The notes under the pieces are model-generated. The model was not told where the DNA came from. It did no database searches and was given only the letters and a program-made list of their open reading frames with translations. From Pseudomonadales bacterium (GTDB lineage Bacteria; Pseudomonadota; Gammaproteobacteria; Pseudomonadales; GM7GCV1): DNA of 64,000 bases. This document shows, piece after piece, positions 28,909-44,444 of this stretch (position 1 is its first letter; each line of letters opens with the position of its first letter). The translations under genes and the position numbers were made by a program. The stretch lies in the NCBI GenBank assembly GCA_965222065.1, contig OZ244933.1, positions 1,912,538 through 1,976,537 of the forward strand, written 5' to 3'.

Positions 28909-29049
28909 GTATTACCCTCTAACAGTCTAAAAGCGCAACTATGCTACATTTTCTTTGCGTAATTGCAATATAGTTACATAAATGTATGAGATATTCCGCG
29001 CATAAAATCGCCATTGCGCCGAATGCCTTACTCACCTAAACTCCCCCCC

Positions 29050-29270
29050 AACCTGCTTGAGGTGCCTGAACCGGATACTGCCTTGTATTCGTTGGTCAGG
29101 TTAAACGGGAACTGTGGTGATTCTGTGTCAGAAGTTAAGGTAGACACAGCCCAATCCACGGCTGCCCCCGCAACGGTGATGGACGTTTTCAACTTTTATA
29201 GATAGCGCCCTAAGCCCGATACCGGCCTGCAAAGTAGCGAGCTTGAACTCCCTGTCCTGATAGGGAGTTC
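29050..29270 (+). promoter_or_regulatory. Cobalamin (B12) riboswitch leader of btuB
   Basis: Conserved core 'TTAAACGGGAACTGTGGTGA' and 'GCTGCCCCCGCAACGGTGA'. B12-box-like 'AAGCCCGATACCGGCCTGC' at 29212-29230. Followed by a 9-bp hairpin GAACTCCCT/AGGGAGTTC (29245-29270). Located upstream of a TonB-dependent receptor and cob genes. Confidence 0.8.
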
Positions 29271-29413: not shown

Positions 29414-31276
29414 ATGAATAACAATAAATTTAAAGTGGCGTTGACCACTGCCATCTTCTCTTTACCTGTCGCTGCACAGGAATCAACTGCAACTCAACCC
29501 GAAGGACTGGAAGAGGTGGTCATCACTTCCAGCCGGGTCGAACAACCGCTTCGTGAAGTGGCAACCTCAGTCTCCGTGATCACCCGCGAGGACTTGGAGC
29601 TTAAGGGTTATACCTCGCTGGCCGATGTGCTCAGAACCCAGACCAGCATTGGCGTAAGTAACCAGGGGGGCACCGGGGCGGTGACCAGTCTGCGTATCCG
29701 CGGTGAAGAAGGCTACCGAACCCTGGTCATGATTGATGGGGTGGATATGTCTGACCCTACTGGAACCCAGGTTGGTCCGCTGGTCCAGAATCTGGCCAAT
29801 ACCCAGGACATTGAACGTATTGAAATCCTGCGCGGGGCACAAGGCTTCCTTTATGGTGCGGATGCTGGTGGAGTCATCAATGTGATTACCCGAAGTGGCA
29901 CGGAAGGTCTTTCCGGAAATGCGTCCGTAGAGACCGGTGCGGACGGAACCATGAATCTTGGCGGTAATGTACGCGGGGGCACGGATAACCTGGATTTTTC
30001 CCTGGCGGTGACCGATACATCCACAGATGGGTTTAATTCGCGATCGGACGACACGGTTCTGCAAGATGATGACGGTGCAGAAAATACCAGTATTCATTTT
30101 AAGGGTGGCATGAAAATCAGCCCGGACCTGTCGGCGACACTGGTTTACCGGGATATCGACGCGGTCAGTGAATATGACAGCTGCTATACCGCCACGTCGA
30201 CACTCTCCAATGACTGCCTGGGCGAAACCAGGCATGAAACTGCCAGGCTCAGCCTGGACTATGTGACCGGCGTGGTTGGCCACACATTTGCCTATGCTGT
30301 CACGGACGTCCAGCGCGATTATTTCACTGAAAATACATTAAGTTACGGCACTGAGGGTAAGACCTCCCAGGCGGAGTATGTTGGCAACCTGCAAATTTCG
30401 GATAGCCAGCAGTTGGTGTTTGGGTCGGATTACCAGAAGGATGAAATCTCGGCGACCGGCAGCGAGTCCGACCAGGACCAACTGGGCGTTTTTGCTGAGT
30501 ATCAAAGCGGGTTTAACGAGGTTGTATTTGTTACCGCGGGTCTGCGCTACGACGATAATTCGGATTTTGGCAAGCACATCAGTTACCGGGCTTCTGCTGC
30601 CTTCGTACAGGATTTGGCCTCTGGCGACAGTATTAAATACCGAGCCACCTACGGCACCGGCTTTCGGGCGCCCAGTCTCAGTGAAGTTGCCTACAACGCA
30701 GGCCCCTTTGGCAATGGTGTTTCCCTGAAAGAAGAAACTAGCAGGGGATATGACCTGGGTGTGGATTACCTGATGCAAAATGGAGCGGAAATTCAGGTGA
30801 CTTACTTCGATCAGGAAATTGATAACGAAATCTATTTTGATCTGGTGACCTTTGGCGGCTATCTGCAAACCGGGGACCGGTCGACTTCCCGGGGTGTGGA
30901 AACCGCTGTTGAGTACCCGGTCAGCTCGCAAGTAAGCCTGATTGCCAATCACACCTATAACAAGACAGAAGACAGCACAGGAGACATTCGGGTGCGTCGC
31001 CCCAGGCATTTGGCCAACCTGGGAGTAGAGTTTGCGCTGCTGGACGCGCGCCTGAATATCCTTGCCAATGTGCGTGTGGCGCGCGATGCCGTGGATAATG
31101 GATCCGTGCCGCTGGATGACTACGAAGTGATTGATCTCAGTGCCAATTATCGATTGGCCAATGGTCTGGAGGCCTTTGGCCGCATTGAAAACCTGGCCGA
31201 TGAAGACTACGAGGAGGTGACGGGTTATAACACCCGCGATCGTTCGTTTTATGCGGGTATGCGCTACCGCTTCTAG
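29414..31276 (+). CDS. btuB: TonB-dependent vitamin B12 receptor
   Basis: 620 aa with signal peptide 'FSLPVAAQE' and TonB-box/plug 'EEVVITSSRVEQPL'. 'IEILRGAQGFLYGADAGGVINVIT'. C-terminal 'AGMRYRF'. Riboswitch upstream. Confidence 0.88.
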   Translation: MNNNKFKVALTTAIFSLPVAAQESTATQPEGLEEVVITSSRVEQPLREVATSVSVITREDLELKGYTSLADVLRTQTSIGVSNQGGTGAVTSLRIRGEEGYRTLVMIDGVDMSDPTGTQVGPLVQNLANTQDIERIEILRGAQGFLYGADAGGVINVITRSGTEGLSGNASVETGADGTMNLGGNVRGGTDNLDFSLAVTDTSTDGFNSRSDDTVLQDDDGAENTSIHFKGGMKISPDLSATLVYRDIDAVSEYDSCYTATSTLSNDCLGETRHETARLSLDYVTGVVGHTFAYAVTDVQRDYFTENTLSYGTEGKTSQAEYVGNLQISDSQQLVFGSDYQKDEISATGSESDQDQLGVFAEYQSGFNEVVFVTAGLRYDDNSDFGKHISYRASAAFVQDLASGDSIKYRATYGTGFRAPSLSEVAYNAGPFGNGVSLKEETSRGYDLGVDYLMQNGAEIQVTYFDQEIDNEIYFDLVTFGGYLQTGDRSTSRGVETAVEYPVSSQVSLIANHTYNKTEDSTGDIRVRRPRHLANLGVEFALLDARLNILANVRVARDAVDNGSVPLDDYEVIDLSANYRLANGLEAFGRIENLADEDYEEVTGYNTRDRSFYAGMRYRF

Positions 31277-36228: not shown

Positions 36229-36627
36229 TTAGTGCGGAGCGCTTTGGTCTTCTGCGCTTAGCGTTTCAATAATGCGTTTGTAGTTGCGGATGGCATCCTG
36301 CTCGGTTGCCGGGTCGGCGTTTTCAAAGAAACGCTTGATTTCGGCAACGGCCTCCATGGCTTTACCTTGACTCCAAAGGGCGTTGTACAGGCCGGTCGAC
36401 GCTTTGCTGTCGCCCGGGAACATCAGCACCAGCTGTTCAAAAACAACCGCTGCCTCCGGGTATTTTTCCTCGCAAAAATACGAGCCTCCCAGCATATAAA
36501 GGGCTGCACTGTTATGTGGCTCTGCACGTAACAATTCCAGCAGGATCCCCTGGGCTCGGGCTTCATTTTTTTCGTCGGAAGCCGCCTTGGCCTCCAGCAG
36601 CATGGCATCGGAATCAGAATCAGTCAT
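36229..36627 (-). CDS. TPR-repeat protein
   Basis: 132 aa, all-helical, with Ala/Tyr/Gly spacing typical of TPR ('ALYMLGGSYFCEEKYPEAAVVFEQL', 'GLYNALWSQGKAMEA'). Confidence 0.6.
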   Translation of the reverse strand: MTDSDSDAMLLEAKAASDEKNEARAQGILLELLRAEPHNSAALYMLGGSYFCEEKYPEAAVVFEQLVLMFPGDSKASTGLYNALWSQGKAMEAVAEIKRFFENADPATEQDAIRNYKRIIETLSAEDQSAPH

Positions 36628-36641
36628 GTCTCGGTGTGGAT

Positions 36642-37280
36642 TTAAATGTCTATGGGTTCGATAAGCCGTTTGCTGTTGTTCAGCACGTTGGCAACATCTC
36701 TTGACACAGGATAGTGCATGATTGGTGGTGATGTCAGGTCGAGTAGCATGGATTGCGTGTCACGGGTGTCGATATCCAGCCAGAGTCGGGCAGACTCCGG
36801 AGTCAGCAGAACCGGCATGCGGGGATGAATGTTGGCGATATCGTCGTCGGCAGGGCGGGTGATCATGGTGCAGGAGTAAAGCCCCTCCGGTCCCCACTTG
36901 TCGTAAATACCGGCGACGACCAGTCCCTGGCGATCCCTGGCCTGGAAGAAATAGGGTTGTCTGTCGCCTTTTGGACCGGTCCATTCGTAATAGCCCAGCA
37001 TGGGAATCAGGCAGCGCTGTTTGTTCTCCCAGGCGTCACGAAAGGCGGGCTTTTCATGGATCGATTCAACCTGGGCCTTAAACGTGGCGTATTCCGAGAC
37101 AAATTCACTGGACCAGTGGGGGATCAGACCCCAGCGCATGGCTTTTCCCGCAGGAGAGCGGAACGCCGCAATGGTCTGGCCGGGTGAGACATTGTAGCCG
37201 TAATCGATATCTGGCCAGATTTTGAGAAAGTCAGACCACCCGGATAAGGGTGGCGTCTTGTTGGCAAATCGCCCGGGCAT
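36642..37280 (-). CDS. SRAP (SOS-response-associated peptidase/YedK) family protein lacking the catalytic Cys2
   Basis: 212 aa. Aligns along its length with YedK ('YNVSPGQ', 'GYYEW', 'NIHPRMPVLL', 'YPVSRDVANVLNN'). It begins MPGRF (ATG CCC GGG) instead of the invariant MCGRF. The 'NARVE' motif reads 'KAQVE'. Confidence 0.8.
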   Translation of the reverse strand: MPGRFANKTPPLSGWSDFLKIWPDIDYGYNVSPGQTIAAFRSPAGKAMRWGLIPHWSSEFVSEYATFKAQVESIHEKPAFRDAWENKQRCLIPMLGYYEWTGPKGDRQPYFFQARDRQGLVVAGIYDKWGPEGLYSCTMITRPADDDIANIHPRMPVLLTPESARLWLDIDTRDTQSMLLDLTSPPIMHYPVSRDVANVLNNSKRLIEPIDI

Positions 37281-37288
37281 AAAGGAAT

Positions 37289-38356
37289 TTAGTGAGTAAA
37301 GCGCTCGAGATGCTCAGGGCCCCTGGCCTGTAGCTTGATTAGATGCTGGTGCGCCAGTCGCAGTGCAGAGGTCGGGCTCGCAGGAGGATTGTCTTTTGGG
37401 AACTGCACGATGGCGATGCTGACAGTCATCGGGTTGCCTTCAAGGCCCTTGATGTTAAGGGCTTTAAAGCCGGTCTGGATTTTGGTGGAAACATATTTCA
37501 GCTTTTCATCGTCCACATGATCGAAAATCACCATAAAACCGACACCGTGGGTTCGACCGATGGAAAAGTGCTGGTTGGGGGGCAGCAGGGAAGAAATGGT
37601 ATTGGCTGCCTGAATCAGAAGTGCATCGCCTGCTTCTTCTCCGTTGGCATCGTTGTATTCCACAAAGCCATCAATCCCGACAGATATTATGCCCGGCAGC
37701 TCCTTGTCGAGCTCCTGGGCTTTTTTGGTTTTCTCCCAAAACAGATTGCGCAAAAAATAACGATTCGGCAGGCCGGTTAGCTCATCCAGGCTGGATTTTC
37801 CCCTGAATATCGATATCAGCTTTTCCTGATGTCTGCTGAGATAAATGACCCCGGTGGCAACAATAATGGCGTTGAGAATCAGTGTTGCCGCATTCAGTAA
37901 ATCCATCGTGCTGGCGTCCCTTATCTGGAGGCCAGGTGCAAGAATGGTGATGGCCGCAATTGCCATGGCAATAATGATACTGTGGACAATGGCTGCATTG
38001 GCGGACATCGTCAGGGCGCAAAGGGCCGGAAGCAGGGCAATAAAGTGGGAGGCCGGGGTGTTGATGCCGTCCTGGGTGTAGCAGGTTGCGATCAGCATGA
38101 CCAGTAACCCACCCAACAACATATGTGGTGCCAGCCAATAATACTGATGCCAGCGGGAGATAACATAGGACAGAATAAGGTAAGACAGGAACAGCGCCTG
38201 TACATGAATAGGGAATAACGGCTCTCGCCCGGAAATAACCTGTGGAAGTGTAAAGGCCACCACCAGGAGGCCCCCGATAACGACCCAGACGAATCGCAAC
38301 ATCTTCCTGCGATGCGAATGAAGGTCTAATGCGATAAAGCTTTGACCAACAGACAT
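37289..38356 (-). CDS. Membrane protein with C-terminal degenerate GGDEF domain
   Basis: 355 aa with ~6 N-terminal TM helices. GGDEF-domain start 'DELTGLPNRYFL' and 'ISVGIDGFVEYNDANGEEAGDALL'. The signature position reads 'GRTHGVGFMVIF' (HGVGF instead of GGDEF/GGEEF). Confidence 0.8.
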   Translation of the reverse strand: MSVGQSFIALDLHSHRRKMLRFVWVVIGGLLVVAFTLPQVISGREPLFPIHVQALFLSYLILSYVISRWHQYYWLAPHMLLGGLLVMLIATCYTQDGINTPASHFIALLPALCALTMSANAAIVHSIIIAMAIAAITILAPGLQIRDASTMDLLNAATLILNAIIVATGVIYLSRHQEKLISIFRGKSSLDELTGLPNRYFLRNLFWEKTKKAQELDKELPGIISVGIDGFVEYNDANGEEAGDALLIQAANTISSLLPPNQHFSIGRTHGVGFMVIFDHVDDEKLKYVSTKIQTGFKALNIKGLEGNPMTVSIAIVQFPKDNPPASPTSALRLAHQHLIKLQARGPEHLERFTH

Positions 38357-43666: not shown

Positions 43667-43742
43667 TTGGTACGAAAGGCTAGAATAGTCTCGCTATGGC
43701 TTGGGGGAATTCCCGGGCCCAGGTCAAAGGCGGAATGTTTGC

Positions 43743-44444
43743 ATGACTTCTGAAGTTCGCGTCCGGACGCGTGTAAGACCCAAAAACGGGCGCAAGTTTA
43801 TTCTGGTGGCCAACTCCAAGGGCGGAAGTGGTAAAAGTACCCTGGCGACCAATCTGGCAGCAGCCTATGCAAGGCTGGGATTTGATACCTCGCTGGTTGA
43901 CTGTGACCAGCAGCGTTCATCAATGGCCTGGATGGAAATGCGACCGCCCATTGCCCCGCCGATTACCGCCGTTAGCGGTTGTGCCGAGGTCGGGGTCCCC
44001 CAGCTGGACTGGGCGTTGCGGGTTTCACCTGATACCAGTCGTGTTATTGTTGACAGTCCCGGAGCAATGCGTGATCAGCGCCTGTACGATACCCTGCAAA
44101 AGGTCGATTATATTCTGGTGCCTGTATTACCCTCAGCAGTCGATATCCGGGCGACTACCGAGTTTTTGAAGGAAGTTTATATTTCGCCGGGCTTCCGGAC
44201 ATCAAACAAGCGACTTTTTGTGATTGGCAATCGAGTGGACAAGCGCAACAAATATTTTCATCAGCTGAGCCGGTTTCTTAAGCGTATGGGTTCCCACGAA
44301 GTGATGACCTTGCCAGACTCCTATGTGTTTTTGCGATGTGCCGACGAAGGTATTGGTGTTGCCGATCTGCATGATTCGCCCCGTTACGAAGAACCACGTA
44401 CAGCCATGCTTAAGATTATTAACGCGATCGAAACCAGGATATGA
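43743..44444 (+). CDS. ParA/MinD-family P-loop ATPase (orphan, no parB/parS seen)
   Basis: Deviant Walker A 'ANSKGGSGKSTLATNLA', 'VIVDSPG' and 'VIGNRVDKRN'. ATG at 43743 preferred over the TTG at 43701. Stop overlaps the dnaB start (ATGA). Confidence 0.8.
   Translation: MTSEVRVRTRVRPKNGRKFILVANSKGGSGKSTLATNLAAAYARLGFDTSLVDCDQQRSSMAWMEMRPPIAPPITAVSGCAEVGVPQLDWALRVSPDTSRVIVDSPGAMRDQRLYDTLQKVDYILVPVLPSAVDIRATTEFLKEVYISPGFRTSNKRLFVIGNRVDKRNKYFHQLSRFLKRMGSHEVMTLPDSYVFLRCADEGIGVADLHDSPRYEEPRTAMLKIINAIETRI

Follow-up and report, generated by a model that had tools for sequence, protein, structure and literature searches.

A naturally occurring SRAP-family protein with proline in place of the catalytic cysteine: a candidate abasic-site lyase or transient binder from marine Pseudomonadales

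An uncultured marine lineage of Pseudomonadales carries a SRAP/YedK-family gene in which the cysteine nucleophile at residue 2 has been replaced by proline. The gene lies in the window analysed here, a 64,000-nucleotide stretch of contig OZ244933.1, and the product of its 212-aa open reading frame begins MPGRFANK (Table 1). The current model of SRAP/HMCES function rests wholly on Cys2 and the thiazolidine crosslink. Aravind et al. (2013) described the SRAP cysteine as 'absolutely conserved' and 'always the second amino acid', and a literature search, which was not exhaustive, found no published description of a natural non-Cys SRAP. Since residue 2 of the window protein has no thiol, a thiazolidine DNA-protein crosslink is chemically impossible. 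By analogy with engineered YedK mutants and with unrelated lyases, we propose, with a probability of about 0.45, that the window protein is a working member of the SRAP fold, with Pro in place of Cys as its N-terminal nucleophile, and that it may act as a turnover lyase at abasic (AP) sites in single-stranded DNA (ssDNA) or as a transient iminium former.

Table 1. Location of the SRAP gene, its diagnostic residues and its neighbours in the window
Feature	Position	Strand	Basis
SRAP/YedK-family gene, 212 aa, stop codon included	36642..37280	-	ORF, Pfam, AF2 model, dN/dS
Codon 2, CCC (Pro), replacing the family's Cys2 nucleophile	37275..37277	-	Read from DNA
K68-A-Q70-V-E72, equivalent to YedK N75-A-R77-V-E	37065..37079	-	Read from DNA and YedK alignment
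Y98-E99-W100; E99, equivalent to YedK Glu105, kept	36981..36989	-	YedK alignment
I-H152-P-R154-M-P, residues 151-156; His160 and Arg162 equivalents kept	36813..36830	-	YedK alignment
I125, Leu-to-Ile, convergent in the two marine Pro2 clades	36906..36908	-	Relatives' alignment
Internal Met48 codon, start of the public gene calls (165-aa product), probably mis-called	37139..37141	-	dN/dS of first 47 codons
Degenerate-GGDEF membrane protein, 355 aa, upstream neighbour; stop 8 nt before SRAP ATG	37289..38356	-	ORF, Pfam
TPR protein, 132 aa, downstream neighbour; starts 15 nt past SRAP stop	36229..36627	-	ORF, Pfam

Pfam assigned the protein to SRAP (PF02586) with an E-value of 1.2e-50 and a score of 172.4 bits (cut-off 27.1), covering profile positions 3-214 of 214, and detected no domain besides SRAP. 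By sequence, its PDB matches were YedK and HMCES. The AF2 model has a pLDDT of 74 and a pTM of 0.78, and is weak precisely at residues 52-73, where pLDDT falls below 50. When this model was used to search the PDB with Foldseek, the top 21 matches were all SRAP proteins, the YedK-DNA complexes scoring a TM of 0.75 with an E-value of ~1e-14; the predicted fold is that of SRAP. Direct reading of the DNA together with the Pfam result bears out the sequence-only reading, which had described a SRAP/YedK homologue starting MPGRF, with Pro2 and with K-A-Q-V-E for N-A-R-V-E, that keeps the YEW and IHPRMP motifs.

Residues were mapped by alignment to YedK, with K68 corresponding to Asn75, Q70 to Arg77, E99 to Glu105, T141 to Thr149, H152 to His160, R154 to Arg162, P33 to P40, W56 to W67, W100 to W106, and residue 125 being the Leu131 equivalent. 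The window protein shares with YedK and HMCES the family, the fold and the equivalents of G3-R4, Pro40, Trp67, Glu105, Trp106, Thr149, His160 and Arg162, and its residue 2 is predicted to be exposed, as theirs is, by a single Met removal. It differs from them in the replacement of Cys2 by Pro, of Asn75, the anchor of the N-terminus, by Lys and of Arg77 by Gln, and in that its gene lies outside an SOS or mutasome context. The phosphate-anchor set therefore differs at Gln70, with T141, R154, R4 and W56 kept. Judged from the alignment, the AP-site pocket and most of the ssDNA contacts of YedK appear to be preserved.

The window gene is genuine, purifying selection acts on its translated N-terminus, and Pro2 is fixed in the lineage; sequencing error and pseudogene are excluded. 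The same ATG CCC GGG was found in three independent assemblies (that of the window, a Logan short-read assembly and a 2.53-Mb ENA contig). We identified 12 distinct orthologues from the marine lineage (clade 1, 72-100% identity), and in all 12 residue 2 is Pro, the codon being CCC or CCT. This synonymous variation and the agreement of the assemblies uphold the earlier view that the codon is not a sequencing error, and the orthologues form a Pro2 subclade, for which the sequence-only reading had proposed to look. An alternative upstream start that would give an N-terminal Cys was ruled out, because the 11 in-frame codons between a TGA and the ATG (A-S-R-A-L-Y-S-L-N-S-F) contain no ATG, GTG or TTG and no Cys. 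By the NG86 method, dN/dS against the orthologues was 0.06-0.13 over the whole gene and 0.05-0.13 over codons 1-47, with dN of ~0.15-0.20 and synonymous sites that are saturated (pS 0.66-0.81). Constraint on the neighbouring genes is broadly similar, dN/dS being 0.03-0.14 in informative pairs.

Public databases give a different start. NCBI and ENA call the gene from Met48, which explains why the exact 212-aa product had no match in a public look-up, and no Shine-Dalgarno sequence was found upstream of the ATG at 37280. Both observations would fit an artefact, in which Pro2 is either an error at codon 2 or is never made because translation truly starts at Met48. We regard this as barely credible, given the identical assemblies, the constraint on residues 1-47 and the SRAP profile match that begins at position 3. 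Moreover, in most orthologues the SRAP ATG lies 5-8 nt past the stop of the upstream gene, a spacing that fits translational coupling. Mis-called starts are also systematic in this subfamily: P0043, P0053 and P0013 have MCGRF in frame just 5' of the called start. Many homologues that seemingly began with 'M.GW' at about residue 12, without MCGR, had suggested repeated N-terminal truncation, an idea that was rejected once the DNA of these same three showed MCGRF upstream. The Met48 start in public calls means that variants of the Pro2 type are easily hidden.

A second marine clade also has Pro2, here encoded by CCA, with Asp and His at the positions of K68 and Q70. Neighbor-joining (NJ) bootstraps recovered clade 1 as monophyletic in 100/100 replicates and clade 2 in 95/100, and never united them (0/100); Pro2 arose independently in the second clade. 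To compare the two, we took the 59 positions at which 85% or more of 46 Cys2 relatives agree. Fixed differences at these positions are only 2, 68 and 125 in clade 1 and 2, 68, 70, 78 and 125 in clade 2, an overlap of 3/3 with a chance probability of ~3e-4. Residue 125 is Ile in all Pro2 proteins of both clades (12/12 and 4/4); Leu occupies it in 44/46 of the Cys2 relatives and in every Ser2/Thr2 variant (3/3). Within clade 1, K68 is invariant in the 12 sequences and position 70 is Q, R or K. Residues G3, R4, P33, W56, E99, W100, T141, H152 and R154 are invariant in all Pro2, Ser2 and Thr2 variants, save that a single clade-2 sequence has Ser where YedK has Thr149. The claim that the changes are coordinated is supported, residue 2 having changed together with the N-A-R segment, but the association is not strict, as P0008 and P0013 retain Cys2 with K-A-Q, and Pro2 proteins from Xanthobacteraceae retain N-A-R.

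The description of the window protein as a paralog was not borne out, the gene being a syntenic orthologue across a genus-level lineage. A scan of the 64-kb window found a single SRAP gene and no canonical MCGR copy, and a search of genome contigs with an alignment as query gave no match above 43% identity among the matches listed, which were generic SRAPs. Scanning metagenomes added only 2 orthologous loci.

What a SRAP protein may do without its thiol is indicated by engineered mutants of YedK. YedK C2A gives no DNA-protein crosslink (DPC). Its N-terminal amine enters a Schiff base that borohydride can trap, and the mutant cleaves AP-DNA (PMC9436759). Glu105 is required for this lyase activity (25-fold), His160 is less important and N75A has a modest effect (PMC9436759). 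The C2A and C2S mutants (Paulin, Cortez and Eichman, JBC 2022, PMC9436759; PDB 8D2M, which is among the best Foldseek structural matches to our model) share with the window protein a thiol-less SRAP scaffold, and in them the amine is the nucleophile, Glu105 is needed, and a Schiff base is followed by beta-elimination. However, these mutants were made in the laboratory, carry a primary amine and are slow lyases (reported rate constant 0.05), whereas the window protein occurs naturally, is under selection, and has a secondary amine and the extra changes K68, Q70 and I125.

Precedent for an N-terminal proline comes from lyases of the Nei/Fpg type, which use its secondary amine after Met removal, Nei2 doing so on ssDNA (PMC11323726). 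The resemblance is closest to mycobacterial Nei2, an AP beta-lyase of ssDNA: both proteins have an M-P N-terminus and an acidic residue plus a Lys in the pocket, and the N-terminal Pro of Nei2 is the proposed Schiff-base nucleophile at C1' on a single-stranded substrate. The folds, however, are unrelated. Neither Pfam nor the structure search found an Fpg/Nei N-terminal domain, an H2TH motif or a zinc or zincless finger in the window protein, and the analogy is mechanistic only; the protein is not a member of that family and glycosylase activity is not implied. Nei2 P2C is inactive (PMC11323726), indicating that the SRAP and Nei2 scaffolds tune their nucleophiles differently.

With YedK C2A and the N-terminal Pro of Fpg/Nei as precedents, a lyase or iminium former is our best guess. 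Methionine aminopeptidase would remove Met1 and expose Pro2, since proline at position 2 permits this removal, as it does in Fpg, Nei and Nei2. The protein would then bind an abasic site in ssDNA in the manner of YedK, Glu99 and His152 would open the sugar ring, and the secondary amine of Pro2 would attack C1' to give an iminium ion. This ion could not be trapped by ring closure, and would be resolved either by beta-elimination, with incision of the strand, or by hydrolysis. The protein would then work not as a suicide shield but as a lyase that turns over AP sites, or by binding them transiently and reversibly. Lys68, standing in for Asn75, and the loosened Arg77 position would adjust how the N-terminus is placed, how the proton is abstracted and how the product leaves. 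In YedK, Arg77 is one of three phosphate anchors (Arg77-Thr149-Arg162) and R77A abolishes ssDNA binding (PMC6821365). With Gln at the equivalent position, DNA binding by the window protein may therefore be weakened or altered, and compensation by K68 for the lost anchor is a conjecture. One consideration against a lyase is that cutting ssDNA at AP sites would make double-strand breaks at replication forks, which SRAP normally prevents. The sequence-only reading had called the protein 'probably non-crosslinking', which is right as far as the thiazolidine is concerned but probably too passive, given that Pro keeps a nucleophilic amine and that YedK C2A is an AP lyase. By this analogy, the chemistry is at least as likely to have changed as to have been lost.

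A non-covalent AP-site reader would also be expected to keep Glu99 and His152, Glu105 of YedK supplying AP-site discrimination (PMC6821365). Such a protein would hold AP-DNA or ssDNA in the conserved SRAP groove with no covalent intermediate, Pro2 forming a neat N-terminal cap, and would serve in non-covalent protection, sensing or recruitment, for instance of the TPR neighbour. We consider this the main rival to the lyase reading, though a less probable one. The DNA contacts R4, W56, T141 and R154 and the discriminating Glu99 are invariant, a binder would show equal purifying selection, Asn75, whose role is to place the N-terminus for attack, is gone, and the inactivity of Nei2 P2C shows that N-terminal nucleophiles are not freely swapped between scaffolds. 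On the other hand, a binder should retain the Arg77 anchor, yet Q, R, K or H now stand at this position. Were residue 2 required only to be non-reactive, a bulky residue that blocks Met removal could be reached from TGY in one step, against two for Pro, and yet Pro arose at least six times (in Pro2-seeded and hence biased searches). A secondary amine placed beside the opened aldehyde, in the very pocket that makes YedK C2A reactive, is also unlikely to be inert.

Alternatively, the Pro2 pocket could act on some electrophile or nucleic acid other than an internal ssDNA AP site, candidates being 3'-PUA or 5'-dRP ends, formyl-pyrimidines, RNA abasic sites or a non-nucleic-acid carbonyl, as in the Pro1 tautomerase superfamily. 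The altered positions Asn75 and Arg77 are in contact with the sugar of the AP site and with the 5' phosphate, and the role of YedK Asn75 is larger at 3'-PUA ends than at internal AP sites. The genomic context of clade 1 (degenerate GGDEF, TPR and housekeeping genes) likewise contains no repair genes and gives no hint of DNA repair. We nevertheless judge such re-targeting unlikely: the remaining DNA-binding residues are unchanged, nothing positive points to any alternative substrate, and in Xanthobacteraceae a Pro2 SRAP with canonical N-A-R is encoded within a classical imuB-like/dnaE2/SRAP DNA-damage cassette. The window protein gave no Pfam or structural match to the beta-alpha-beta fold of the tautomerase superfamily, with which it has the N-terminal Pro alone in common.

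Co-transcription or translational coupling of the GGDEF and SRAP genes is likely, and a scan for promoters and terminators around the SRAP gene, including the GGDEF-SRAP gap, found nothing above the shuffled expectation. The GGDEF-SRAP-TPR order is syntenic in all clade-1 loci, as is the entire housekeeping neighbourhood, and the TPR gene, present at each locus, has a dN of ~0.06-0.07 between orthologues. The contexts of the second marine Pro2 clade and of the nearest Cys2 relative are unrelated to that of clade 1. We attempted to read function from the three-gene arrangement and dropped it, since the whole neighbourhood is syntenic and the context of the other clade differs.

At least four further separate Pro2 cases were found in Xanthobacteraceae, in a search that was seeded by a Pro2 query and in which three Pro2 matches lay near the list cut-off, so that their frequency is biased upward. 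Each is a singleton at a tip of the tree, its nearest neighbours being Cys2 proteins of 86-93% identity, and one Arg2 tip (P0403) is placed likewise. This pattern would also fit short-lived loss-of-function alleles. Other SRAP loci have degenerate N-termini or lack Glu and His (P0271, L050 and L054). Both observations lend something to the reading that loss of Cys2 marks a gene on its way to becoming a pseudogene, which for the window gene we hold to be very improbable. In clade 1 omega is 0.06-0.13 at saturated synonymous sites, all reading frames are intact, Glu and His are invariant and the Pro codon varies synonymously, and on these sequence data decay appears largely refuted for that clade.

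In total Pro2 has at least six origins, a count biased by the Pro2-seeded searches; the nearest 149 listed 50%-identity representatives to P0001 include no Pro2, one Ser2 and one Val2. The Val2 protein (P0271) has lost Glu and His as well. Where Glu and His are kept, Cys2 is replaced by Pro, Ser or Thr, all of which permit Met removal. The Ser2 and Thr2 variants neighbour the second Pro2 clade. Ser was considered as a mutational bridge from Cys to Pro and rejected, the observed Ser2 codon being AGC, which lies off any single-step path to CCA. Arg2 (P0403) is a possible bridge in Xanthobacteraceae, by TGC to CGC to CCC. T4 endonuclease V is an AP lyase with an N-terminal Thr. NEIL3 is an AP lyase with an N-terminal Val (PMC11323726). 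In both, whose folds are unrelated to SRAP, a small N-terminal residue supplies its alpha-amine as the nucleophile, which offers a parallel to the Ser2/Thr2 SRAPs; these are relatives of the window protein and not the protein itself.

The existence of natural, selected and recurrent Pro2 SRAPs, and of Ser2 and Thr2 variants beside them, in which the remaining active site is kept, shows that the scaffold serves a purpose other than irreversible shielding. We tentatively suggest that, in these independent origins, SRAP proteins may have evolved repeatedly from suicide crosslinkers into N-terminal-Pro enzymes that act through a transient iminium, by ssDNA AP-lyase activity or reversible capture, with fixation and convergent re-tuning of the pocket (Asn75, Arg77 and the Leu131 equivalent) in the marine clades. 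Pro2 SRAPs are ready-made tests of whether a single residue decides between protection and cleavage of an abasic site in ssDNA, a question that bears on the stability of replication forks, on enzyme design and on how mutasomes work, with one Pro2 copy adjoining dnaE2. If the proposal is true, the SRAP scaffold would have converged on the catalytic solution of Fpg/Nei, and would provide a natural toggle between protecting and cutting at ssDNA abasic sites.

The SRAP/YedK-family gene, the only SRAP gene detected in a scan of the 64-kb window, encodes a 212-amino-acid protein in which, as read from the sequence, K-A-Q-V-E occupies residues 68-72, Y-E-W residues 98-100 and I-H-P-R-M-P residues 151-156. 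The sequence-only reading had described Pro2, an altered N-A-R-V-E segment and retained YEW and IHPRMP motifs, and the open reading frame, Pfam, the alignment with YedK and the fold show it to be accurate in every detail. It had also allowed that resequencing might give TGC at codon 2, or that an upstream start might place a Cys at the processed N-terminus. However, ATG CCC GGG and its surroundings are base-for-base identical in a Logan short-read assembly and an ENA 2.53-Mb contig, and the 11 in-frame codons between the preceding TGA and the ATG contain neither an alternative start codon nor a Cys. Public gene calls begin at Met48, but constraint on the protein sequence is clear across residues 1-47 and we therefore place the start at the ATG before Pro2. 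In most orthologues this ATG lies 5-8 nt after the stop of the upstream gene, an arrangement that, with no Shine-Dalgarno sequence, fits translational coupling.

Features of the window and of homologous loci (L handles, genome or metagenome loci; P handles, homologous proteins)
Feature	Location	Strand	Remark
SRAP/YedK-family gene, 212 aa	36642..37280	-	ORF; protein begins MPGRFANKTPPLSGW
Codon 2, CCC (Pro)	37275-37277	-	read from DNA
Met48 codon	37139-37141	-	start in public gene calls of this genome, giving 165 aa
GGDEF neighbour, multi-pass membrane protein, 5' of SRAP	37289-38356	-	motif aligned by eye
Cobalamin riboswitch	29045-29244	+	Rfam RF00174, 50.5 bits
TonB-dependent receptor ORF	29414-31276		preceded by the riboswitch
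247-aa ORF, Walker-A motif KGGSGKST	43701-44444	+	ParA/MinD-like by eye
Soil Xanthobacteraceae SRAPs, Pro2 and one Arg2	L051 5908-6579; L098 5001-5678		proteins P0408, P0434, P0451, P0403
SRAPs without recognisable MCGR in the open frame	L050 5893-6573; L054 5734-6621; L035 5872-6525		other MAGs
Ser2/Thr2 SRAP set	L096 3857-4501		second non-Cys group
In-frame MCGRF 5' of called start	L090 4953-5000; L092 721-768; L097 about 1743-1802
TATAAT-like boxes tatatta, tatattt, tatact, tataat, cataat	L089 (about 975-997), L094/L095, L096, L090, L092, L097		by eye

The protein covers the Pfam SRAP profile (PF02586, E=1.2e-50) from position 3 to the end, and sequence comparison with solved structures places it closest to BT_1218, HMCES and YedK. 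An AlphaFold2 model built from 24 homologues (pLDDT 74, pTM 0.78; weak at residues 52-73) found no PDB matches other than SRAP structures; YedK-DNA complexes ranked highest (TM 0.75), and the YedK C2A Schiff-base structure 8D2M was among the best matches. By sequence and fold, then, it is a member of the SRAP family, and not of the Fpg/Nei or tautomerase families, with which it has only the N-terminal-proline principle in common. In a HMMER alignment with YedK (chain index plus one giving the residue number, checked on Pro40), K68 corresponds to Asn75, Q70 to Arg77, E99 to Glu105, W100 to Trp106, T141 to Thr149, H152 to His160, R154 to Arg162, W56 to Trp67 and P33 to Pro40. Of the catalytic features by which the family is defined, Cys2 and Asn75 are replaced and the Glu and His are kept, and the DNA anchor is mixed.

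A Pro2 subclade, which the sequence-only reading had suggested looking for, does exist. Database relatives at 72-76% identity (P0002-P0006, P0124-P0126 and P0128) all begin MPGRF, and Pro2 is present in 12/12 distinct sequences of this group (clade 1), including the strain variant P0121 and the metagenomic locus L084. Gene order at these loci matches that of the window, running from RNase R through a 256-aa hypothetical protein, the GGDEF protein, SRAP and a TPR protein to btuF/D/C and the cobyrinate genes, and the proteins are therefore orthologues in one lineage, across whose genomes DnaB is at least 90% identical. The orthologues vary in their Pro codon, some having CCC and some CCT. Nei-Gojobori dN/dS, with synonymous sites near saturation, is 0.06-0.13 over the full gene and 0.05-0.13 within codons 1-47, and the flanking genes are broadly alike in informative pairs (GGDEF 0.07-0.14, TPR 0.03-0.08). 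A sequencing error or wrong start is contradicted by the identical assemblies, the CCC and CCT orthologues and the dN/dS of codons 1-47. Likewise, the selection data contradict gene decay as the reason for the loss of Cys2 in this clade.

The home subfamily is marine gammaproteobacterial, carries the signature ...W..LL..WP.V..SYN, and consists almost entirely of MCGR proteins with T-F-N-A-R. Searching with its homologue P0032 as query, we found a second non-Cys group (clade 2) nested among such sequences: four proteins with MPGRI and T-F-D-A-(H/Q), codon CCA; P0136, P0137 and P0150 with MSGRY and T-F-N-A-H, Ser codon AGC; and P0138 with MTGRY and T-H-N-A-H. The Ser2 and Thr2 proteins, with N-A-H for N-A-R, are sisters of the clade-2 Pro2 sequences; an N-terminal Ser or Thr could form a reversible oxazolidine or serve as a lyase nucleophile. 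In a neighbour-joining tree that left out the N-terminus and positions 68 and 70, clade 1 was monophyletic in 100 of 100 bootstraps, clade 2 with its Pro, Ser and Thr variants in 95, and the two together in none, indicating that Cys2 was lost independently in each. Across the 59 positions at which 46 full-length Cys2 relatives show conservation of 85% or more, clade 1 has fixed differences only at 2, 68 and 125, with position 70 relaxed (Q, R or K), and the clade-2 Pro sequences at 2, 68, 70, 78 and 125. All three clade-1 sites thus fall within the five of clade 2 (chance about 3e-4), and the Leu-to-Ile change at 125 accompanies Pro2 and not Ser2 or Thr2. The remaining equivalents of YedK catalytic and DNA-contact residues are invariant, apart from a single clade-2 sequence with Ser in place of the Thr149 equivalent. 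The coordinated changes proposed earlier are borne out within the clades, where residue 2 and the N-A-R segment are altered together, but the coupling is not absolute, as the homologues P0008 and P0013 keep Cys2 alongside K-A-Q. Pro2 is absent from all 149 of the 50%-identity representatives listed as nearest to the window protein, of which one has Ser2. Another of them, P0271 (259 aa), begins MVNRF, lacks the catalytic Glu (GYYIW) and His (VSRRQP) as well and, in contrast to the Pro2 proteins, looks like a dead, apparently fully inactivated SRAP.

Pro2 also arose in Xanthobacteraceae, independently of the marine clades. When the N-termini of 80 genome loci were checked, one MAG read ATG CCC GGC where relatives have ATG TGC GGC, and a search seeded with its protein returned three more MPGR proteins and one MRGR protein where all others were MCGR, a frequency that is inflated because the query was itself Pro2 and three Pro2 proteins stood near the bottom of the matches listed. 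The nearest neighbours of every non-Cys protein are Cys2 proteins at 86-93% identity, whereas the non-Cys proteins share only 75-85% with one another, and the losses are therefore separate events. N-A-R, GYYEW and LH.RMP are all canonical in these proteins, and the gene for one, P0451, directly follows an imuB-like gene and dnaE2, the SOS mutasome that is a classical SRAP gene context (Aravind et al. 2013). For these isolated tips decay is a possible explanation. The aberrant N-termini at L050, L054 and L035 may be frameshifts, pseudogenes or assembly errors.

Gene callers systematically mis-start the subfamily, the window gene included. Many homologues seemingly lack MCGR and start 'M.GW', but natural truncation was rejected because MCGRF(N/V)... 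lies in frame directly 5' of the called start in the DNA of three; the residue-2 state is consequently hidden in protein databases. By eye, free-standing SRAP genes of the subfamily have a TATAAT-like box only ~6-10 nt ahead of the ATG and lack a visible Shine-Dalgarno sequence, which suggests leaderless mRNAs; these would account for the mis-called starts. Elsewhere in the window, the GGDEF-domain neighbour reads, by eye, HG(V/D)G(F/L) for the expected GG(D/E)EF, as do its orthologues, and is therefore probably not an active diguanylate cyclase. Downstream of the cobalamin riboswitch and receptor are cob and btuCDF-type genes that end beside the TPR gene, and the ParA/MinD-like ORF is inserted between rplI and dnaB.

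In YedK, the Cys2 alpha-amine attacks C1' of the ring-opened abasic (AP) site to give a Schiff base, and the thiol closes the thiazolidine (PMC9436759, PMC6821365). Ring opening and formation of the Schiff base require Glu105, with a contribution from His160 and no more than a modest effect of N75A, and 8D2M is a crystal structure of the C2A Schiff base (PMC9436759). The phosphate on the 5' side of the lesion is fixed in place by Arg77, Thr149 and Arg162, and ssDNA binding is lost in the R77A, T149A and R162A mutants (PMC6821365). Lacking a thiol at residue 2, the window protein cannot, on chemical grounds, form a thiazolidine crosslink. Judged against these mutants, it would retain all that AP-site binding in ssDNA and iminium formation need, and the group replaced would be the one that traps the iminium; for this reason we prefer to see it as a turnover AP lyase or transient capture protein. 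Met1 would be removed to leave N-terminal Pro2, the AP site in ssDNA would be bound despite Gln70, and the Pro2 amine would form an iminium that resolves by beta-elimination or hydrolysis. In Nei/Fpg-type lyases, the ssDNA-specific Nei2 among them, exactly this Schiff-base chemistry is carried out by the secondary amine of a Pro that becomes N-terminal once methionine aminopeptidase has acted (PMC11323726). More speculatively, the relaxed Arg77 position would suit product release, and proton transfer could involve the charged residue that replaces Asn75, which is Lys in the window protein and Asp in clade 2. The weakness of the finding is that all reasoning about function relies on mutants studied biochemically in a homologue with 27% identity. 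The main rival, a non-covalent reader of AP sites or ssDNA, would agree with the conserved DNA contacts and Glu99 and with the loss of Asn75, but is a poorer match to the relaxed Arg77 position and to the recurrence of Pro, which takes two mutations from TGY; bulky residues that need only one would prevent Met removal and thereby leave the N-terminus silent. The protein may alternatively have been re-targeted to 3'-PUA, 5'-dRP or other carbonyls.

We found no description of natural non-Cys SRAPs in the literature searched, the coverage of which was incomplete, so that this is absence of evidence only. The strength of the case lies in its overall pattern, with a variant fixed under purifying selection, its repeated origin, and convergent changes that concentrate on the active site. 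The window protein should be filed as a divergent SRAP and not as a functional YedK orthologue, and the labels 'abasic site processing protein YedK' and 'SOS response-associated peptidase' would mislead.
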